Origin: Nanobdellota archaeon
GTDB lineage: Archaea; Nanobdellota; Nanobdellia; Woesearchaeales; UBA9642
Direction of reading: 5' to 3'
DNA length: 64,000 bases
Assembly: GCA_021813435.1 (NCBI GenBank)
Contig: JAKAKR010000004.1
Span: 120,972-184,971 of the forward strand
The notes beneath the pieces were generated by a model that made no database searches, was not told where the DNA came from, and worked only from the letters and a program-made list of their open reading frames with translations. Both the position numbers and the translations under genes were made by a program. Positions 5,505 through 48,637 of the stretch are shown piece after piece (position 1 is the first letter of the stretch; every line of letters begins with the position of its first letter).

Positions 5505-6113
5505 CTATTCTGCAATATCTGCAAGTTCTTCGATAAGTTCAAGATGTTTTATCCGAAGTGTCGGTTCACCGCAATAACTCCTGTTTCCTACTCTGAATAA
5601 TTGGGGTTGCGCATGGAATAGCAATTGCAGCGGTGTTTGGGGTCCATTGATATACTGGCTGTCTATGAATGCTTCGTGATCCGCATGCCTGTCATATGTC
5701 CCGGTGATAATGATTCCAGGAATGCTGTCGCGCAGGTGGTCATAGATGTTGAATCGTGTGTGATCGATATGTTTTCCATGGATATGGGTGATGTCCTCTA
5801 TAGTCACATGGTCGATAATCCCTAAAGTTCTGCTGTTGTTAAACATGCCTCGCACACTTTGCTGTCGGGTATGCGCGAGATACTCTCCAAAATCCTCCAT
5901 TGTACCGCCGGTGTATATCGTTGCGCGTAGGGCATCAAGTCCTGTCATGAACCGGGGTAGTCGGTGAGGTATACTGATTTTATCGTATACTTCTTTTATC
6001 TCTGCAATATTTTGAAACAGCAGCACGTGGTCATAAGGATAATATCGCTGTGCCATAACCATAAGAATATCGCCGGGACGTTGTGCATAATACTCTGCAG
6101 TGATGTTTTCCAT
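5505..6113 (-). CDS. hypothetical protein, possibly metallophosphoesterase-like
   Basis: His/Asp-rich stretches (ITHIHGKHIDH, GTYDRHADHE) reminiscent of calcineurin-like phosphoesterase motifs but motif order not canonical. Confidence 0.3.
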   Translation of the reverse strand: MENITAEYYAQRPGDILMVMAQRYYPYDHVLLFQNIAEIKEVYDKISIPHRLPRFMTGLDALRATIYTGGTMEDFGEYLAHTRQQSVRGMFNNSRTLGIIDHVTIEDITHIHGKHIDHTRFNIYDHLRDSIPGIIITGTYDRHADHEAFIDSQYINGPQTPLQLLFHAQPQLFRVGNRSYCGEPTLRIKHLELIEELADIAE

Positions 6114-40948: not shown

Positions 40949-41413
40949 ATGCCTGCTGACGTGAATGATCTAAAGCTTGTTGAATCCATTCTCAAAAAAT
41001 ATTCGCGAAAAGAGGATACTGTTGCAGCACTGCAGGAATTGCAGCAGACATTCGGATATCTTGAAAGAGGCCATCTTGAACTCCTGGCAAAGCAACTTTC
41101 CCTGCCGCTCGTCCACATCACCGGCGTTGCCACATTCTACACCCAATTCAAGTTCACGCCTAAAGGAACATACCATATCAGCATCTGTCGGGGAACTGCC
41201 TGTCATGTCAAGAATTCAGAGACACTCCTCAAACATGTGGAAAGAAAATTGAACATCAAGGCCGGAGAGATCACGACAGACAAGAAGATCAGCCTAGAAT
41301 GCGTCAATTGCATCGGTGCATGCGCAAAAGCGCCGGCAATGATGATCAATGAAAAAGTCTACGGGAACCTTGACGAGAAAAAGATCGACATGATCATCCA
41401 TTCACTTGAATAA
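40949..41413 (+). CDS. hydC: [FeFe]-hydrogenase subunit HydC (NuoE-like thioredoxin-fold [2Fe-2S] protein)
   Basis: ISICRGTACHVKNSE ... CVNCIGACAKAP four-Cys NuoE pattern. Confidence 0.85.
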   Translation: MPADVNDLKLVESILKKYSRKEDTVAALQELQQTFGYLERGHLELLAKQLSLPLVHITGVATFYTQFKFTPKGTYHISICRGTACHVKNSETLLKHVERKLNIKAGEITTDKKISLECVNCIGACAKAPAMMINEKVYGNLDEKKIDMIIHSLE

Positions 41414-41460
41414 TTCATTCGAATAATACGCGATAGACTCATACATAAGACCATACTTCC

Positions 41461-43251
41461 ATGACACCCATCACTGCACTTGCAGACCTCAAAAAAGGGC
41501 ATGAAGCACTCACCTGTGATCGGATTACAGTCGGGCTTGCAACATGCGGGATATCTGCAGGAGCAGACAGGACACTTGCAGCATTCCAGGCAGCAAATCT
41601 TCCGCTCATCATCGAGAATGTCGGATGCCTGGGGAACTGTTATGCTGAACCCATTGTGACTGTCCGGCAGGACGGTAGCACCGCAATCTATGGTCACGTA
41701 ACCGAAGATAAAGTCCAGAAAATCCTTGATGCCATAAAAACTAAAACAATCTGCAAAGAATTATTCCTTGGACGCACTCTTGAAGAAATCGATTTCTATA
41801 AGATTCAGAAACGGTTGCTCCTTGCAAACTGCGGAAAAATAAACCCGCTTGACATTGACCAATACGTCGCAACCGGAGGGTACGACGGGCTTGCAAAGGC
41901 GCTTCGCAAGAAACCGCAGGAAATCATCGAAGATGTGCTTGCAAGCGGATTGCGTGGCAGGGGCGGCGCTGGATTTCCTACGGGACAGAAATGGAGACTT
42001 ATCGCAGTAAAGACCGGAAAAAAGATCCTTGTCTGCAATGGTGACGAGGGAGATCCCGGAGCATTCATGAACCGTACAGTCATGGAGTCTGATCCCTTCA
42101 AACTCATCGAGGGGATGACGATTGCAGCATATGCGATCGGCAGTGATGAAGGAATAATCTATACCCGCGCAGAATACCCGCTTGCAGTAAAGACCCTGCG
42201 CTCGGCAATCACCATCGCAGAATCGCACAACCTTCTTGGAAAAAATATTCTTGGCATTGAAGGATTCAATTTTAACCTGCGCATCGTCATGGGCGCAGGA
42301 GCGTTTGTGTGCGGTGAAGAGACTGCGCTCATGAATTCAGTCATGGGACTGCGCGGACAGCCGCATTACAAGCCGCCGTATCCAGCTGACAAGGGAATCT
42401 ATGGATACCCGACAAACATCAATAATGTAAGTACATTATCATTTGTCCCGCTTATCATGTCCATGGGCGCCAAGGAATTTGCAAAAATCGGAAGCGAAAA
42501 AAGCAAAGGCACTGCAGTACTCTGTCTGACAGGAAAAATAAACAGGACAGGAGTCATTGAAGTCCCTATGGGAACGCCACTGCGCGAGATCATCTTTGGA
42601 ATTGCCGGAGGACCACCGCAGGGAACAACATTCAAGGCAGTGCAATGCGGAGGCCCTGCGGGAGGATGCGTGAGCGAGAAATACCTTGACCTTCCCGTCG
42701 ATTATGAATCACTCCTCTCAATCGGGGCAATGATGGGATCCGGAGGACTTGTTGTCCTCAACAGCGATTCCTGCATGGTTGATGTCGCAAAATTCTTCAT
42801 GAGTTTCACCCGCAGTGAGAGTTGCGGCAAGTGCACACCCTGCCGTGAAGGAACAACACGGATATGGGAGATACTGGATAAGATCACCAAAGGCCTCGGG
42901 ACACCTAAAGATATTGAAACACTCAAATCATTGTCGCAGTATGTAAAAGAAAACAGCTTATGTGGCTTGGGGCAGGCTGCCCCAAACCCCATCCTTACGA
43001 CCCTAGCGCAATTTGCAGACGAATACCGTGTCCATATTGAACAGAAGGAATGTCCTAGTCACTCCTGCAGAAACCTCGTCCATTACCGTATCAATGAGAA
43101 ATGCACGGGTTGCGGGAATTGCGCAAGACATTGCCCGGTCCATTGCATTGCCGGACGATTAAAAGAAAAACACGTCATCGACCAATCAGTCTGTGTGCGC
43201 TGCGGCGCATGCTATGAGAATTGCGCATTTGACGCAATCGACAAAGGATAA
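41461..43251 (+). CDS. hydB: [FeFe]-hydrogenase subunit HydB (NuoF-like; FMN/NADH-binding, Fe-S)
   Basis: N-terminal [2Fe-2S] domain, GRGGAGFPTGQKW (FMN), GEETALMNS (NADH), CGKCTPCREG [4Fe-4S], C-terminal 2x[4Fe-4S] ferredoxin (CTGCGNCARHCP, CVRCGACYENC). Confidence 0.9.
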   Translation: MTPITALADLKKGHEALTCDRITVGLATCGISAGADRTLAAFQAANLPLIIENVGCLGNCYAEPIVTVRQDGSTAIYGHVTEDKVQKILDAIKTKTICKELFLGRTLEEIDFYKIQKRLLLANCGKINPLDIDQYVATGGYDGLAKALRKKPQEIIEDVLASGLRGRGGAGFPTGQKWRLIAVKTGKKILVCNGDEGDPGAFMNRTVMESDPFKLIEGMTIAAYAIGSDEGIIYTRAEYPLAVKTLRSAITIAESHNLLGKNILGIEGFNFNLRIVMGAGAFVCGEETALMNSVMGLRGQPHYKPPYPADKGIYGYPTNINNVSTLSFVPLIMSMGAKEFAKIGSEKSKGTAVLCLTGKINRTGVIEVPMGTPLREIIFGIAGGPPQGTTFKAVQCGGPAGGCVSEKYLDLPVDYESLLSIGAMMGSGGLVVLNSDSCMVDVAKFFMSFTRSESCGKCTPCREGTTRIWEILDKITKGLGTPKDIETLKSLSQYVKENSLCGLGQAAPNPILTTLAQFADEYRVHIEQKECPSHSCRNLVHYRINEKCTGCGNCARHCPVHCIAGRLKEKHVIDQSVCVRCGACYENCAFDAIDKG

Positions 43252-43285
43252 AAAATTGACGCTTTGAATACTGTCATAAGAAACT

Positions 43286-45028
43286 ATGGCATCCCCTGAA
43301 CATCCCCAAAAAGTGAAGATAACACTCAACGATGAAATCGTATGGTGCGATCCCAATGCGTATATCATAGATATCGCGCGAAACAATAACATCTATATCC
43401 CGCACTTTTGTTATCATGAACGATTGGAACGCACGGCAAACTGCCGGCTCTGCGTCGTCGAAATCGAGATCGGAGGGAAAAAACGCATCATGACATCCTG
43501 CAACCTCAAGCCGCAGGAAGGAATGATCGTCAACACCCATACCCCGAAAGTCCTTGAGGCGCGCAGGGTCAATATTGAACTGCTTCTTGCAAACCATGAC
43601 TTGAACTGTCCGACCTGCGCAAAGAACCTGCATTGCAAACTCCAACGCTACTCGGGCGAACTCATCGTCAAGGAAACGCCATTTACAGGCAAACGACGCA
43701 ATGTGCCTGTCGATGAATCAAGCCCCTCGATTCGCCGGGACAACAATAAATGCATCCTCTGCGGCAGGTGCATCAAGATGTGCGGTGATGTACAGACCGT
43801 GAATGCAATCCAGCAGCAGTTCCGCGGATTTGAGACGCTGGTCTCCTGCGCATTCAATGAAGGACTTGGCGAGAGCAGCTGCGTCAACTGCGGTCAATGC
43901 GTGATTGCCTGCCCGACCGGGGCATTGACTGAGCGCAGCGACATCCCGCATGTCATTGATGCATTGAATGATCCCCATAAGATTGTCATTGCGCAGACTG
44001 CGCCATCAATTCGCGCAACACTCGGAGAATGCTTTGGGATGAATCCCGGAACAAATGTTACCGGAAAAATGGTTGCTGCACTGAAAAAATTAGGATTTGA
44101 AAAAGTGTTTGATACTGACCTTGCTGCAGACATCACTATTGTCGAGGAAGCATCGGAATTCATCAAACGCCTGAATGCGAACGAGAACTTGCCGATGATC
44201 ACGACCTGCTGTCCGGCATGGATAAAATTCGGCGAGCAATTCTTCTATGATGAACTCAGCCACATGTCGACCTGCCGGAGCCCGCAGGCAATCATGGCAT
44301 CACTCATCAAGACGTATTATGCCGAAAAAGCAGACCTTGACCCTCAGCGGATAGTGCTGGTTGACATCATGCCCTGCACTGCAAAAAAATTCGAGATCCT
44401 CAGACCAGAATTCGCAGGAGAAGCAGATTATGTCTTAACGACTGTCGAACTCGGAAAACTCATCAAGGAGATGAATATCGACTTTGAACACCTCGAGCCT
44501 GCACGTTTTGACAATCCGCTCGGCGAGAGCACTGGCGCAGGAGCAATATTCGGACATACAGGTGGGGTTATGGAAGCAGCACTGCGTACAGTTGCAGACT
44601 GGCTTGAGAACAAGAACTTCAAACATATTGATTACCAAGCCATTCGGGGCATGGAGACACTCAAAGAAGCAACAGTTCACATCGATGGGATGGAGATCAA
44701 TCTTGCAGTCGTCCATACCTTGGGCGAAGCGCGCAAACTCATGGAACAGATCCGCAGTGGCACTTGCAAATACCACTTCATTGAGATCATGGCATGCTAC
44801 GGTGGATGCATCGGTGGCGGAGGGCAACCTGCACCAACTGAGCGGTTTGATGAAGTCTTAAAAAAACGCGTTCAGGCGCTCATCACTGAGGATCTGCACA
44901 AGGAGATCAGAAAATCACACAAGAACCCTGCAGTCAACAAACTCTACGACGAGTATCTCGGCGATATCGGTGGAGAGCGGGCGCATAAATTGTTGCATAC
45001 GAGCTATCAGAGAAGAGAGTTTAAGTAG
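43286..45028 (+). CDS. hydA: [FeFe]-hydrogenase catalytic subunit HydA (with N-terminal [2Fe-2S] and [4Fe-4S] domains)
   Basis: H-cluster signatures MITTCCPAWIKF (TSCCPxW), MPCTAKKFE (MPCxxKxxE), EIMACYGGCIGGGGQP (ExMACxxGCxxGG). Confidence 0.9.
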   Translation: MASPEHPQKVKITLNDEIVWCDPNAYIIDIARNNNIYIPHFCYHERLERTANCRLCVVEIEIGGKKRIMTSCNLKPQEGMIVNTHTPKVLEARRVNIELLLANHDLNCPTCAKNLHCKLQRYSGELIVKETPFTGKRRNVPVDESSPSIRRDNNKCILCGRCIKMCGDVQTVNAIQQQFRGFETLVSCAFNEGLGESSCVNCGQCVIACPTGALTERSDIPHVIDALNDPHKIVIAQTAPSIRATLGECFGMNPGTNVTGKMVAALKKLGFEKVFDTDLAADITIVEEASEFIKRLNANENLPMITTCCPAWIKFGEQFFYDELSHMSTCRSPQAIMASLIKTYYAEKADLDPQRIVLVDIMPCTAKKFEILRPEFAGEADYVLTTVELGKLIKEMNIDFEHLEPARFDNPLGESTGAGAIFGHTGGVMEAALRTVADWLENKNFKHIDYQAIRGMETLKEATVHIDGMEINLAVVHTLGEARKLMEQIRSGTCKYHFIEIMACYGGCIGGGGQPAPTERFDEVLKKRVQALITEDLHKEIRKSHKNPAVNKLYDEYLGDIGGERAHKLLHTSYQRREFK

Positions 45029-45055: not shown

Positions 45056-46165
45056 TCATGATTTGATGGATTCAATATTTTTCTTTGAATGGTCTCTTAA
45101 ATATTTATTATATTCTTTTGTTGATAAATTATTAGAGAGAATGTCTGTGTATGGCGTTAAGATTCTCTGCCGTAGTTTGTAGCTGTTAGCGTGTTTTATG
45201 TGTGCTATCCATCCTTCGATGGTGTCGTAGACTTTATCGTATTCAATTTGTTTGTTTTGATATTTCGTAATGAGCAGTGATAATTTCTTTCTGAATTTTC
45301 TGCTGTTTCTTTTTGCAAGGAGTTTGTGATGTGGGTAGATTCTTATTCCTAAGAATCCTACGCCACGTTTTAGGAATGATATTTTTGTTTTTTCTGGATG
45401 AAGCTCTAGGTGCAGGTTTTCTTTAAGGAATTGATTAATTTGTGTTTTATAATCTTCGAGTTTTTCAAGGTGTTCGTCCATGATTACAAAATCATCAACA
45501 TATCTGATGTAATAGTTTACGCGGAGTTTGTGTTTGATAAACCAATCTAATTCATCAAGGTAAATATTTGCAAAAAATTGGCTTGTGAAATTTCCGAGCG
45601 GCATCCCTTTCCTTCTGTTTCTTGTTTGGTGGTTGCTTAGGATTATTCTTATGAGGTTGATGAGTTTTTTATCCTTAATCTTTCTTTGAAGTAAGGTTAT
45701 AAGAATATTGTGGTCTACATTGTCAAAGTAGTGTTTGATATCCGCTTTAAGTATATAACAATTTCTTGTGTTGTTTTGTGATGCTTTCTGTTTGAATTCT
45801 TCGAATCGTTTTATTGCTTTGAGTGTTCCTTTTCCTTTGCGGTTTGCGTAAGAATCGTGGATGAATGTTTTATCGAATAGTGGTTCGATAATATTGCAGA
45901 TTGCGTGGTGTACGATTCTGTCTCTAAAATCCGATTTACTGATTTTTCTGGTCTTTGGATCTCTAAGAATGAATGTTTCTAGAGGTCTTGGCTCGTATAG
46001 TTCGAGTTCTAACTCTTTTTGCAACTGAACAAGATTCTCTTTAAGATTGTTTTCAAATTCTATGACGTACGGTTTTAGTGTCTTATGTTTACGCGCCTTT
46101 TTATACGCAAGGTAGAGGTTATCTTTTGAACAGATTAACGGGTAGAGTTGTTTGTATCTCTTCAT
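45056..46165 (-). CDS. diversity-generating retroelement (DGR) reverse transcriptase
   Basis: RT motifs ILKADIKHYFDNVDH, GMPLGNFTSQFFANIYL (DGR-typical [I/L]GxxxSQ instead of QGxxxSP), YVDDFVI; N-terminal LYLAYKKARKHK...FRDRIVHHAI typical of DGR RTs; template repeat 22 nt upstream of its start. Confidence 0.9.
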   Translation of the reverse strand: MKRYKQLYPLICSKDNLYLAYKKARKHKTLKPYVIEFENNLKENLVQLQKELELELYEPRPLETFILRDPKTRKISKSDFRDRIVHHAICNIIEPLFDKTFIHDSYANRKGKGTLKAIKRFEEFKQKASQNNTRNCYILKADIKHYFDNVDHNILITLLQRKIKDKKLINLIRIILSNHQTRNRRKGMPLGNFTSQFFANIYLDELDWFIKHKLRVNYYIRYVDDFVIMDEHLEKLEDYKTQINQFLKENLHLELHPEKTKISFLKRGVGFLGIRIYPHHKLLAKRNSRKFRKKLSLLITKYQNKQIEYDKVYDTIEGWIAHIKHANSYKLRQRILTPYTDILSNNLSTKEYNKYLRDHSKKNIESIKS

Positions 46166-46187
46166 GAATATGATGCCTTGACAGGGG

Positions 46188-46279
46188 GTTATTCCAACGA
46201 AGCGGGCATTGTTATTGAGATTGTTGTTGCCATTAAGATTGCCGTTGTTGTTGCTGTTGTTGACAAAGAGGACCCGCCC
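46188..46279 (-). repeat. DGR template repeat (TR)
   Basis: 92-nt near-identical copy of 46758..46849; on coding (minus) strand rich in AAC/AAT codons (GRVLFVNNSNNNGNLNGNNNLNNNARFVGI in target frame). Confidence 0.9.
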
Positions 46280-46526
46280 CGATCTTTAGCCCTTTTGCTG
46301 TAACTCTTCACCATTGCTTCAAGATTTCGAAACTGATTCTACTCATTGTCGCAATTGTATGCTCAAAAATCGTAGATTTTTGGCACGCCAGAAATCCGCG
46401 ATTTCTCAGCGTTTTATGACGCTTAATAAGACGCCTTAGCAAAAGAGCGTGTAGCCCCGTACCCGCGCTTAATTCAGGTAAGTCAAGGCGGTGAGAAAAA
46501 TAAAAAGAATATTAAAAAGATTTCTA

Positions 46527-46568
46527 TTTTAGAAACAGTGGTTGCGTGTGCTTCGGCTGTTTCTAAAA
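46527..46568 (-). terminator. stem-loop (12-bp stem) followed by T-tract on minus strand, probable terminator of DGR target gene
   Basis: TTTTAGAAACAG ... CTGTTTCTAAAA inverted repeat with 18-nt loop ~45 nt downstream of target stop; T-rich tail on minus strand. Confidence 0.45.
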
Positions 46569-46612
46569 TTCAGAAGACAAAACACATATTATCTGAATAA
46601 TGTTGTCTTCTT

Positions 46613-47500
46613 TTATTTACGCGTTAGCATATTGTAAACCGTTGGTGATACTAGGTCCTGTCGGATAACCACAATTCCGTTACCTGCATCAATGCCTTTA
46701 CCGACTAGTGTTTCCAGTGGAGACTTGATTTTTTGCGCGCTGGCTACGCCAGACGACGGTACCCCAACGAAGCGGGCATTGTAATTGAGAAGGTTGTAGC
46801 CATTAAGATTGCCGTTGTCGTTGCTGTTGTCGACAAAGAGGACCCGCCCATAAGGTACGTCATGTAAATCAGTTGAGTGATATACTCCGATGTTTTTTCC
46901 TACAACTTTCTCGTGCTGTTCCAAATATTTTTCTGCGCGTTTTTCTCCACCAATAAATGGAATGACTTGTGGATGTTTCATTGCATCAGAGATGCTTATT
47001 GTTCCACTTGTAGAATTTTTCAATGAATCGTAATCAATGACAAAAACATTAACACCGTCTTCTTTATTTAGTAATTGCTGAAATAATTTTTTTGGATAAT
47101 ATCCTGCGCCGTTGATGAGCGGATTTTTCTTGTCAACTATTGCTTTCTGAATATTTTTTGGATCAGAAAAATAATTATCTATGTGCGCATAGACTACAAC
47201 TTTGCTTCCGCCTTTAGTTGTTCCAGTTACTCGAACACTTGGAGCGCTATACCCTTTATTCCAGATAAATGAATTCTTATCAGAAACACTGCGCATATCC
47301 ATTATCTTAGGAATAAATGCAGCACGATAACCTTCGTTTTGGCATTCAGCGAGTGCTACAGGCAAAGGATTTTGAAGACCATATTTTTCTACGTCTTCTT
47401 TTGATACTGAATCTCTATAAAAGATTTTACCCATTACAGTCATTGGAATTTGAATATCTTCAGTCATTTTGATCCTCCGTACGAGTTGTGCGTAAAACAA
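46613..47500 (-). CDS. DGR variable (target) protein, family unknown
   Basis: Contains VR (residues ~213-244 of 295: GRVLFVDNSNDNGNLNGYNLLNYNARFVGV); no signal peptide evident; 48-aa tail after VR. Confidence 0.8.
   Translation of the reverse strand: MFYAQLVRRIKMTEDIQIPMTVMGKIFYRDSVSKEDVEKYGLQNPLPVALAECQNEGYRAAFIPKIMDMRSVSDKNSFIWNKGYSAPSVRVTGTTKGGSKVVVYAHIDNYFSDPKNIQKAIVDKKNPLINGAGYYPKKLFQQLLNKEDGVNVFVIDYDSLKNSTSGTISISDAMKHPQVIPFIGGEKRAEKYLEQHEKVVGKNIGVYHSTDLHDVPYGRVLFVDNSNDNGNLNGYNLLNYNARFVGVPSSGVASAQKIKSPLETLVGKGIDAGNGIVVIRQDLVSPTVYNMLTRK
46758..46849 (-). repeat. DGR variable repeat (VR) inside target gene
   Basis: Differs from TR at 9 positions (TR 46189, 46192, 46193, 46213, 46221, 46222, 46228, 46249, 46261), every one a T in TR on the + strand = A on coding strand, replaced by G/C/A/T. 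Confidence 0.9.
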
Positions 47501-47620: not shown

Positions 47621-48172
47621 ATGGCAAGCCCAAGCAAAGAGAATCAGGTATTAACACTCATCCTCGAGAGCAGCCCACTAAAGAAATGGCATTTTGAAGA
47701 GATCATGAAAGAGGCAAAAGTCACTCGGCTTGTTGCAAACAAGTGGCTCAAGAAATATCTTGCAGAAAAACTTATCATCCGCGTAAAAGAAAAAGGACGA
47801 TTCCCATATTACACTGTAGAGTCGAACAATCCAGTATATTACTCAGCAAAAAGAATATATATGCTCGAGCGATTGCACAGCAGCGGATTATTATCTCGAT
47901 TATTATCATTGACTGGCATAAAAACCATTATCTTGTTTGGAAGCGCAGTAAGAGGTGATTGGTATGCGGGTTCAGATATCGACATCTTCATGCTCGGAAA
48001 TCTTCCGGATTTTGATAAAAAAATTTATGAACAACAACTGCATACCCAGATAGAGTTGCATGTGTTCAAGGACAAAAGAGAGATACATGCAGTAAAAACA
48101 GGACTCATTGCAAACATCATCAACGGTTATGTCCTCAAGGGACAGATCCAAGACATCGTCGAGGTTGCATGA
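47621..48172 (+). CDS. minimal nucleotidyltransferase (MNT) with N-terminal wHTH-like region
   Basis: ILFGSAVRGDWYAGSDIDIF = GSxxRG...SDxDh nucleotidyltransferase motif. Confidence 0.75.
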   Translation: MASPSKENQVLTLILESSPLKKWHFEEIMKEAKVTRLVANKWLKKYLAEKLIIRVKEKGRFPYYTVESNNPVYYSAKRIYMLERLHSSGLLSRLLSLTGIKTIILFGSAVRGDWYAGSDIDIFMLGNLPDFDKKIYEQQLHTQIELHVFKDKREIHAVKTGLIANIINGYVLKGQIQDIVEVA

Positions 48173-48637
48173 ATGAAATTAATAATTGACAATCTTGACA
48201 GCACCTATAAATCATGCATGTCTAACGGCATGATCAAAGAGAAAACTATTGATATCGAACTCATCCGTTCACTTAAGCTTGTCGCAGAACAAGGAATACG
48301 ATTCATCAACAGCAAGTCAAAAGACATTCCAAAACACAGTACTGACTGGACATTTGTATTCAGGGATTATTATGAGGCATTACGCGGGCTTATCGAAGCA
48401 TATATACTTTTTGATGGGATCGTTGCAGACAATCACCAATGCAAGAACGCATATGTCTGCTTCAGGCATCCAGAACTTGAACTCGATTGGGCATTTCTTG
48501 AAACAATCAGATTAAAACGTAATGCGATAAATTATCGTGGGCAATTATTAAAATATGATGATTGGAAATTATTAAAATTAAAATTTGGATTGCATATCAA
48601 TGCGCTGAAAAATGAGATTGAGAAAAAATTAGGGTAG
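48173..48637 (+). CDS. HEPN-domain protein (partner of MNT; putative toxin)
   Basis: Start overlaps MNT stop (TGAATG); helical protein with RLKRNAINYRG resembling HEPN Rx4-6H motif (Y in place of H). Confidence 0.55.
   Translation: MKLIIDNLDSTYKSCMSNGMIKEKTIDIELIRSLKLVAEQGIRFINSKSKDIPKHSTDWTFVFRDYYEALRGLIEAYILFDGIVADNHQCKNAYVCFRHPELELDWAFLETIRLKRNAINYRGQLLKYDDWKLLKLKFGLHINALKNEIEKKLG

Follow-up and report, generated by a model that had tools for sequence, protein, structure and literature searches.

We analysed a 64,000-nt stretch of DNA from a Nanobdellota archaeon (Woesearchaeales, UBA9642; GenBank assembly GCA_021813435.1, contig JAKAKR010000004.1, positions 120,972 to 184,971 of the forward strand), hereafter the window, in which an initial annotation made from the sequence alone had recognized a complete diversity-generating retroelement (DGR). 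The element is read from the minus strand, where the gene order is target gene, spacer, template repeat (TR) and reverse transcriptase (RT) gene, the second copy of the repeat, the variable repeat (VR), being located inside the target gene. The cassette is chromosomal, flanked by a [FeFe]-hydrogenase cluster on one side and by a gene pair that includes a nucleotidyltransferase on the other, and no compositional break was found at the element. Relatives were collected by scanning one genome per species, which yielded 50 loci encoding them, all from Nanoarchaeota, Woesearchaeota, Pacearchaeota or other archaeal metagenome-assembled genomes (four labelled Methanosarcinales).

The RT gene (45056..46165, minus strand) encodes an intact protein of 369 aa (Pfam RVT_1, 4e-28) that contains GMPLGNFTSQFFANIYL and YVDD, with PLGNFTSQ, within GMPLGNFTSQ, matching the [I/L/V]GxxxSQ form of motif 4. 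Its closest relative among PDB structures is the Bordetella RT, bRT (8ub7; E 1.4e-46, 162 bits), group II intron RTs following at E 3e-25. These results bear out the initial call of an RT with the DGR-diagnostic [I/L]GxxxSQ and YVDD motifs on this strand. In the alignment with bRT, R74 is conserved and L stands in place of I181; these two residues tune adenine mutagenesis in bRT. When compared by tblastn with the RTs of related cassettes, including that of the single-cell amplified genome (SAG) AAA011-G17, the protein gives E values from 1e-92 to 1e-142.

The TR (46188..46279, minus strand) is made up of 13 AAY codons plus one AGC among its other codons and is separated from the RT start codon (ATG, 46165) by 22 nt, and the VR (46758..46849, minus strand) corresponds to codons 207-236 of the 284-aa target protein. 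Aligned without gaps on the minus strand, the two 92-nt copies differ at nine positions (46261, 46249, 46228, 46222, 46221, 46213, 46193, 46192 and 46189 in plus-strand coordinates), all nine at TR adenines. With adenine accounting for 31 of the 92 nt of the TR, the probability of this outcome is ~2e-5; for the 86-nt core of the repeat, where 6/6 mismatches fall on A, it is ~6e-4. The homology breaks off sharply at both ends, 29 of the 31 TR adenines occupy codon positions 1-2, and the VR is in frame within the 3′ part of the target gene. Realignment thus reproduced the geometry given in the initial annotation, namely, a 92-nt TR placed 22 nt ahead of the RT start, a second copy in the 3′ part of the target ORF and nine mismatches confined to TR adenines, and the quoted translations of the TR, which is Asn-rich, and of the VR proved exact. 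The interpretation of the mismatches as the signature of mutagenesis holds for the adenine-only pattern but not for all nine positions: positions 46193/46192 (AA>GG) represent a constant difference between the ends of the VR and TR that is present in every related locus, which makes it a fixed directional feature rather than a product of mutagenesis. In addition, the mismatch at 46189 sits at the edge of the homology. The unambiguous marks of mutagenesis are therefore six mismatches in five codons (N213D, N217D, N224Y, N226L and N229Y). No second VR was detected within the 64-kb window, the next best site having 30/61 non-A mismatches.

The 3′ ends of the two repeats carry the signals expected from published archaeal DGRs. 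The A-free 3′ end of the VR, GCCCGCTTCGTTGGGGT (46761..46777, minus strand), contains the TGGGGT motif of the initiation of mutagenic homing (IMH) element, and the corresponding segment of the TR, GCCCGCTTCGTTGGAAT (46191..46207, minus strand), contains the TGGAAT motif of IMH*, which is universal in the family. The VR end reads GTTGGGGT and the TR end reads GTTGGAAT; GGGGT closes the VR and GGAAT closes the TR in 17/17 related cassettes. Five nucleotides past the VR end, within the coding sequence, lies a GC-rich hairpin or cruciform, CTGGC-GTA-GCCAG (46740..46752, minus strand), which encodes residues within SSGVAS of the target protein. Hairpins of the relatives have 5-6 bp stems closed by triloops, for instance, GCGCC-GAA-GGCGC, GTGCC-GAA-GGCAC and GCCGCC-GCA-GGCGGC, and the differences among these stems show that the stem covaries. 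The same set of features has been described for the DUSEL4 Nanoarchaeota DGRs, in which the IMH has TGGGGT, the IMH* has TGGAAT and a hairpin with a trinucleotide loop resides inside the target gene (Paul 2015, PMC4372165).

The target gene (46613..47467, minus strand) encodes a protein of 284 aa related to AvpA, a crystallised variable protein of a Nanoarchaeota DGR that combines a C-type lectin fold with an internal VR and with a hairpin-encoding tail of 46 residues (Handa 2016, PMC5006420). A phmmer comparison with AvpA (PDB 5ioo) aligns target residues 33-251 with AvpA residues 14-226 (E 3.1e-59), with ~50% identity across 219 residues, and the VR blocks of the two proteins (GRLLFVG...ARFVGV) coincide in the beta4′-beta5 region. 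In the window protein, 47 residues follow the VR. The protein has no match in Pfam or NCBIfam; 28 homologues were identified, in which the VR block is hypervariable between conserved GRxLFVG and (A/G)RFVGV flanks. The initial annotation had the VR-bearing ORF extend from 46613 to 47500. The ORF itself stands, whereas TTG 47500 is only the start of the maximal reading frame, and translation most likely begins at ATG 47467, which is preceded by a GGAGGA motif and gives an N-terminus matching the MTED/MSE N-termini of homologues. In the alignment of the C-terminal 45 residues (residues ~238-284 of the window protein), the tails that follow the hairpin in the AvpA family fall into two unrelated types. 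The LE(T/K)LVGKG...GNGI(V/I)V type is found in the window protein, its six closest homologues and P0018, and the helical IEQIL...KxLYK type in AvpA itself.

The RT, the adenine-only divergence of the repeats, the lectin-fold target, the IMH/IMH* pair and the in-gene hairpin jointly corroborate the original proposal of a complete DGR, and we assign the element with high confidence to the chromosomal Nanoarchaeota/AvpA-type DGRs of DPANN archaea. This class of DGR has already been described (Paul 2015; Handa 2016) and is on record from Nanoarchaeota and Woesearchaeota, and the window adds another well-preserved example of it. What extends the published picture is the RNA in which the TR is embedded.

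RNA structure around the template repeat

The spacer between the target stop codon and the TR measures 333 nt, and most of it is occupied by a match to the RT-16 RNA motif (Rfam RF03019; 46281..46488, minus strand; 55.8 bits against a gathering score of 50) that stops 1 nt before the TR. The initial annotation had noted that no Avd-like ORF is present in this spacer, which is correct, but the RNA had been missed. RT-16 belongs to a set of 19 "RT" motifs discovered in the vicinity of RT genes, only one of which, RT-10, has been tied to a DGR (the Bordetella Sp region), while a DGR link of others was a matter of speculation (Weinberg 2017, PMC5737381). Neither Rfam nor Weinberg 2017 gives a function for RT-16, and no paper linking it to DGRs was found in the literature searched. 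Sarcin-ricin-like loops have been listed in RT-10, RT-14, RT-16, RT-17, RT-18 and RT-19 (2026 paper).

RT-16 recurs at the same place in the relatives. It was detected in 13 of 20 related loci at 54-109 bits, and in 10 of the 11 of these that have a mapped TR start, including L049, it ends within ~4 nt of that start, the exception being L012. Across 14 copies, 16 of the 22 predicted pairs show compensatory changes; pairing in the core helices reaches 92-97% and is accompanied by compensatory changes among the relatives, and the whole-structure covariation counts exceed those of all 500 shuffles. The covarying 11-bp closing stem (46439-46448 with 46289-46298) ends 9 nt before the TR. By contrast, the helix designated P1 in the Rfam model fits the window poorly, with three non-canonical pairs. 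The window copy also carries an insertion of ~58 nt that forms an extra hairpin (~46362-46420, minus strand) between the conserved CAUAAAA and AUACAG blocks; inserts in the same part of RT-16 are present in six relatives (L009, L010, L036, L047, L051 and, at a nearby site, L050). We assign RT-16 to the template RNA of AvpA-type archaeal DGRs, in which it forms the 5′ domain.

The insertion, together with an extra hairpin after the target stop codon, accounts for the length of the spacer, as those of relatives span 163-258 nt. The latter hairpin, with a perfect 12-bp stem (TTTTAGAAACAG...CTGTTTCTAAAA; 46527..46568, minus strand), is specific to the window, being absent from relatives, and is possibly a terminator. 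A further Rfam model, RT-11, matches the same region below threshold (46309-46482, minus strand; 37.8 bits against a gathering score of 143.5), sharing the CUACACGC, CAUAAAA and ACA...GAAGC blocks, which suggests that RT-11 and RT-16 are related motifs.

Beyond RT-16 itself, the sequences on the two sides of the TR are complementary to each other in two segments, which together can form a long-range clamp. Strand a (GCCUUGAC; 46482..46489, minus strand), at the 5′ edge of RT-16, pairs with strand a′ (GUCAAGGC; 46175-46182, minus strand), which ends 9 nt before the RT start codon. Their consensus sequences are GUCUUGGY and RCCAAGAC, respectively, the latter located 8-21 nt 3′ of the GGAAU that ends the TR. 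Strand b (GGGG; 46455..46458, minus strand) overlaps the conserved GGCUACACGC box and pairs with strand b′ (CCCCC; 46184-46188, minus strand), immediately 3′ of the TR. In the family, the two sides of this second helix are the bases immediately preceding the invariant GGCUACACGC box and those right after GGAAUAA, as exemplified by GUGCUUAGG/CCUAAGCAC in L034 and GGGG/CCCC in the window.

Both helices are supported by covariation, and both are part of the minimum-free-energy fold of the window RNA. Pairing of a with a′ was predicted by RNAalifold unaided from a MAFFT alignment of 18 loci, in which compensatory changes affect 8/8 pairs and 98.6% of the cells are paired; the window's own copy of the helix bears compensatory changes. 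For b:b′, 82.9% of the cells are paired, six pairs covary, and cognate duplexes are stronger than non-cognate ones (-9.4 versus -6.1 kcal/mol; 0/5000 permutations). Because a test with hand-anchored helices is open to bias in the choice of segments, it was repeated on the ordinary MAFFT alignment with RNAalifold and pair counts, with the same result.

Upstream of the clamp, a TATA-like box, TTTTTAATATT (46508..46518, minus strand), is a putative archaeal promoter of the template RNA; in 18/18 loci, a TTTAAATA/TTTATAA-type box precedes the 5′ strand GUCUUGG by 22-32 nt. This arrangement points to a dedicated transcript starting at the clamp. The result is a compact cassette of ~1.9 kb consisting of the putative promoter, RT-16, the TR clamped by covarying helices, and the RT gene.

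A comparable duplex is known from Bordetella, where segments upstream and downstream of the TR (avd and Sp) pair to form the cPRT Stop, which is needed for self-primed cDNA synthesis and marks the end of that synthesis; similar flanking duplexes have been predicted in 207 Avd-containing DGRs. By analogy, the probable role of the archaeal clamp is to hold the template in position and to confine cDNA synthesis to the TR.

Related cassettes and alternative explanations

In its sequence features, the window cassette is a typical member of its family. TR/VR pairs were identified in ~18 related loci with an A-tolerant diagonal scan, as blastn self-comparison missed heavily mutated VRs, and show 8-19 A mismatches along with 0-2 non-A mismatches. 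The TR precedes the RT gene by 19-43 nt (78 nt in one case), and the 163-258 nt range of spacer lengths holds for 16 loci, with L038 (733 nt) as an outlier. One of the relatives, L049, is the SAG SCGC AAA011-G17, an original DUSEL4 cell, and aligns feature for feature with the window cassette.

Several observations nevertheless weigh against the proposed reading of the element. The hairpin loop of the window is GUA and departs from the GRA triloop that has been stated for all DUSEL4 DGRs (Paul 2015). Loops of the relatives are mostly GAA, but GGA, GCA, UGU and AGA also occur; together with GUA in the window, the last three indicate that the published GRA rule is not general. As for the clamp, strand a is also able to pair locally with strand b, as in P1 of the Rfam model; this alternative is 86.7% paired and displays some covariation, although it involves many U-G pairs and a central mismatch. 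Since strand a can pair either way, two mutually exclusive conformers are possible. Finally, only 5 of the 14 mutable codons differ from the TR, fewer than in relatives, and variation between public copies of the element is lacking. The copies L001, L002 and L053 (from GCA_027347435.1) are 100% identical over 2801 nt including the VR, members of the 90% protein cluster, which covers 12 contigs, differ in start-codon calls only, and an A-degenerate pattern search of JGI metagenomes returned no A-variant VR. The consensus assemblies thus give no sign of ongoing diversification, with which minority variants remain compatible.

These data could be explained if the DGR were intact but silent or of very low activity, with a single past homing event and a VR now fixed in the population. 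Identity of the VR in all public assemblies of the organism, the failure of the metagenome search to recover A-variants and a divergence of only six core substitutions from the TR, against 8-19 in relatives, all fit such a history. However, all functional parts are intact, from the RT ORF with its catalytic motifs and the IMH/IMH* pair to the hairpin, RT-16 and the two helices of the clamp, and the window's own compensatory changes in a:a′ imply continued selection on the RNA. Moreover, the assemblies represent consensus sequences only, perhaps from one study, so that minority variants could still exist. We consider a silent element rather unlikely, although it is the best placed of the alternatives to the reading of a working AvpA-type DGR.

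Much less probable is the possibility that the product of the spacer is not a functional RNA but a small, basic protein similar to Avd. In its favour, ORFs with an Avd-like isoelectric point and molecular weight have been noted between the RT and target genes of related elements (Paul 2015, Fig. 3 legend), and a 44-aa basic ORF (46308-46442) is present in the window spacer. However, the longest stop-free run within the 333 nt is ≤67 codons, whereas in the spacers of 18 relatives such runs span 15-56 codons (85 in L038) with no conserved frame. Pfam searches of 28 small ORFs from the 64-kb window gave no match to an Avd/23S_rRNA_IVP family, those of the neighbouring genes detected no Avd, and clustering of small ORFs found no conserved family within ~4 kb of 13 complete cassettes. 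The region instead matches a curated RNA family and shows base-pair covariation, with 16/22 and 30/37 pairs compensatory. The absence of an Avd-like ORF from the spacer, already remarked in the initial annotation, is thus upheld by stop-codon, Pfam and clustering analyses alike, and from the gene content analysed here we conclude that the element has no Avd gene, an accessory that many DGRs, though not all, possess.

The least tenable alternative, an RT of group II intron, retron or defence type next to a 92-nt repeat that arose by partial gene duplication and ordinary divergence, could appeal to the group II RT/maturase model (TIGR04416) being the top NCBIfam score of the RT, but this score (175 bits) is far under the cut-off of 300, no NCBIfam model for group II, retron, Drt or AbiA proteins reaches its curated cut-off, with retron and defence-associated RT (DRT) scores even further under theirs, the match to bRT is 70 bits above that of any group II RT in the PDB, the [I/L]GxxxSQ motif is present, an Rfam search found no group II intron RNA domains, and the restriction of mismatches to adenines recurs across the family. 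Collectively, these results refute the assignment of the RT to any of these three types and place it with bRT, in agreement with the DGR-diagnostic motif noted in the initial annotation.

Some related loci deviate from the complete layout. In five of them (L009, L010, L036, L050 and L051), an AvpA-like gene, a TR and the a′ strand are present, but the available downstream sequence contains no RT gene. The RT-16 box and strand a are found in 5/5, with only L050 reaching the Rfam threshold, and by their gene content these cassettes look like template modules that need an RT in trans; 'fragmentary DGRs' have been mentioned previously (Paul 2015). Conversely, L023 and L042 possess an intact RT gene, RT-16, an Asn-codon-rich TR with a GGAAT end and the clamp strands, along with an adjacent AvpA-like gene in which the A-tolerant scan detected no matching VR. 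In these two loci, the divergence of the VR must be too great, or else the target that belongs to the TR is located elsewhere.

In 5 of 11 RT homologues from related cassettes, a G7-G10 homopolymer is the exact site of a frame switch (L026, ~1843-1852; L030, ~5594-5602; L034, ~5632-5638; L046, ~5604-5613; L007, ~5762-5771). Four of these tracts are located in the loop just before GMPLGN(L/F)TSQ and one after YVDD, and tract lengths of 8-9 (or 11) would restore the frame. Either assembly errors in the homopolymers or phase-variable switching of the DGR RT on and off could account for these frame changes; the RT gene of the window contains no tract of this kind.

Divergent from the target gene is a nucleotidyltransferase gene (47621-48172, plus strand; Pfam NTP_transf_2/Polbeta), directly followed by a 154-aa ORF (48173-48637, plus strand) with no Pfam match, a layout that resembles an MNT/HEPN-type toxin-antitoxin pair. 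We considered this pair as a possible DGR accessory and rejected it, as it is kept beside one relative only (L006, which lacks both TR and RT). On the other side, convergent with the RT gene, is a three-gene [FeFe]-hydrogenase cluster (40949-45028, plus strand) encoding a thioredoxin-like 2Fe-2S protein, a NuoF-like 51K subunit and HydA with Fe_hyd_lg_C/SSU domains, which points to a fermentative, H2-evolving DPANN archaeon.

Proposed mechanism and comparison with known systems

The anatomy of the cassette, its homologies and the covariation of its RNA are direct observations, and the following sequence of events would connect them. Transcription would start at the TATA-like promoter just after the target gene and yield an RNA spanning the RT-16 domain, the 92-nt TR and the RT mRNA. 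The RT would then copy the TR into cDNA, misincorporating opposite adenines, as expected from its homology to bRT, and the AvpA-like gene would take up the cDNA in place of its VR. What would set the direction of this transfer is the difference between IMH (GGGGT) and IMH* (GGAAT), together with the GC-rich triloop hairpin 5 nt past the VR. Variation would be limited to 14 codons (13 AAY and one AGC) on the C-type lectin fold's ligand-binding face; by codon arithmetic, these 14 codons give ~8e15 proteins and no stop codons. With no Avd to assist, the TR would be bracketed by RNA, with the RT-16 stem on the 5′ side and helices b:b′ and a:a′ on the 3′ side. By analogy with Bordetella, this RNA would provide self-priming and the stop function.

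A bolder model can be built on the same observations, in which RT-16 replaces the Avd scaffold, P1 and the clamp form a toggle, and template modules are served in trans. Under this model, the clamp may close the template loop, set both ends of the cDNA and place the priming site, the whole amounting, perhaps, to a switchable, RNA-only counterpart of the Bordetella bRT-Avd-RNA particle, and the five RT-less cassettes (L009, L010, L036, L050 and L051) may be template modules served by an RT encoded elsewhere. Taken as a whole, this model is tentative and less likely than not. The more restrained reading of an AvpA-type DGR whose template is bracketed by RNA has consequences of its own. It provides the orphan Rfam family RT-16 with a function-level context, and the added value of the present analysis resides in this assignment and in the covarying pairs that support a bipartite clamp on both sides of the template in a DGR without Avd. 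The Avd-free cassette of ~1.9 kb could be reconstituted to ask whether RNA alone gives self-priming and template restriction, which bears on the generality of the Bordetella mechanism and on the engineering of small DGR-based mutagenesis tools.

Three known systems are the natural points of reference. The window, like 13 relatives, matches the Rfam RT-16 model above its gathering score, and the comparison adds two elements to that model. In AvpA-type DGRs, RT-16 is placed directly 5′ of the TR, and its P1 helix competes with a long-range pairing that is better paired and extends to sequence 3′ of the TR, outside the model.

With the DGR of Bordetella phage BPP-1 (Mtd, Avd, TR, Sp and bRT), the window element shares adenine-specific transfer, a homologous RT (E 1e-46), the logic of the IMH, a downstream hairpin, a lectin-fold target and a template flanked by mutually pairing RNA segments, which in BPP-1 form the avd:Sp cPRT Stop duplex. 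The differences concern, above all, the distribution of RNA and protein. The window element lacks an Avd gene, has only 22 nt instead of the 140-nt Sp separating TR and RT gene, and carries its large structured RNA 5′ rather than 3′ of the TR. In addition, the upstream strand of its duplex is not abutting the TR but ~200 nt before it, with the RT-16 core in between, the VR is not C-terminal, and the C-type lectin fold belongs to a different subclass.

The closest correspondence is with the Nanoarchaeota DUSEL4/AvpA DGRs, which have the same gene order (target, spacer, TR, RT), a DPANN host lineage, an internal VR followed by ~46-47 residues, an AAY-rich TR, the TGGGGT and TGGAAT motifs of IMH and IMH*, respectively, and a GC-rich triloop hairpin within the target gene. 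Compared to these elements, the window has a longer spacer (333 nt against 163-258 nt), a GUA rather than GRA loop, a protein tail of a type unlike that of AvpA, and a larger potential repertoire, its 13 AAY codons giving ~1e15-1e16 variants against the published 7e10-9e12.

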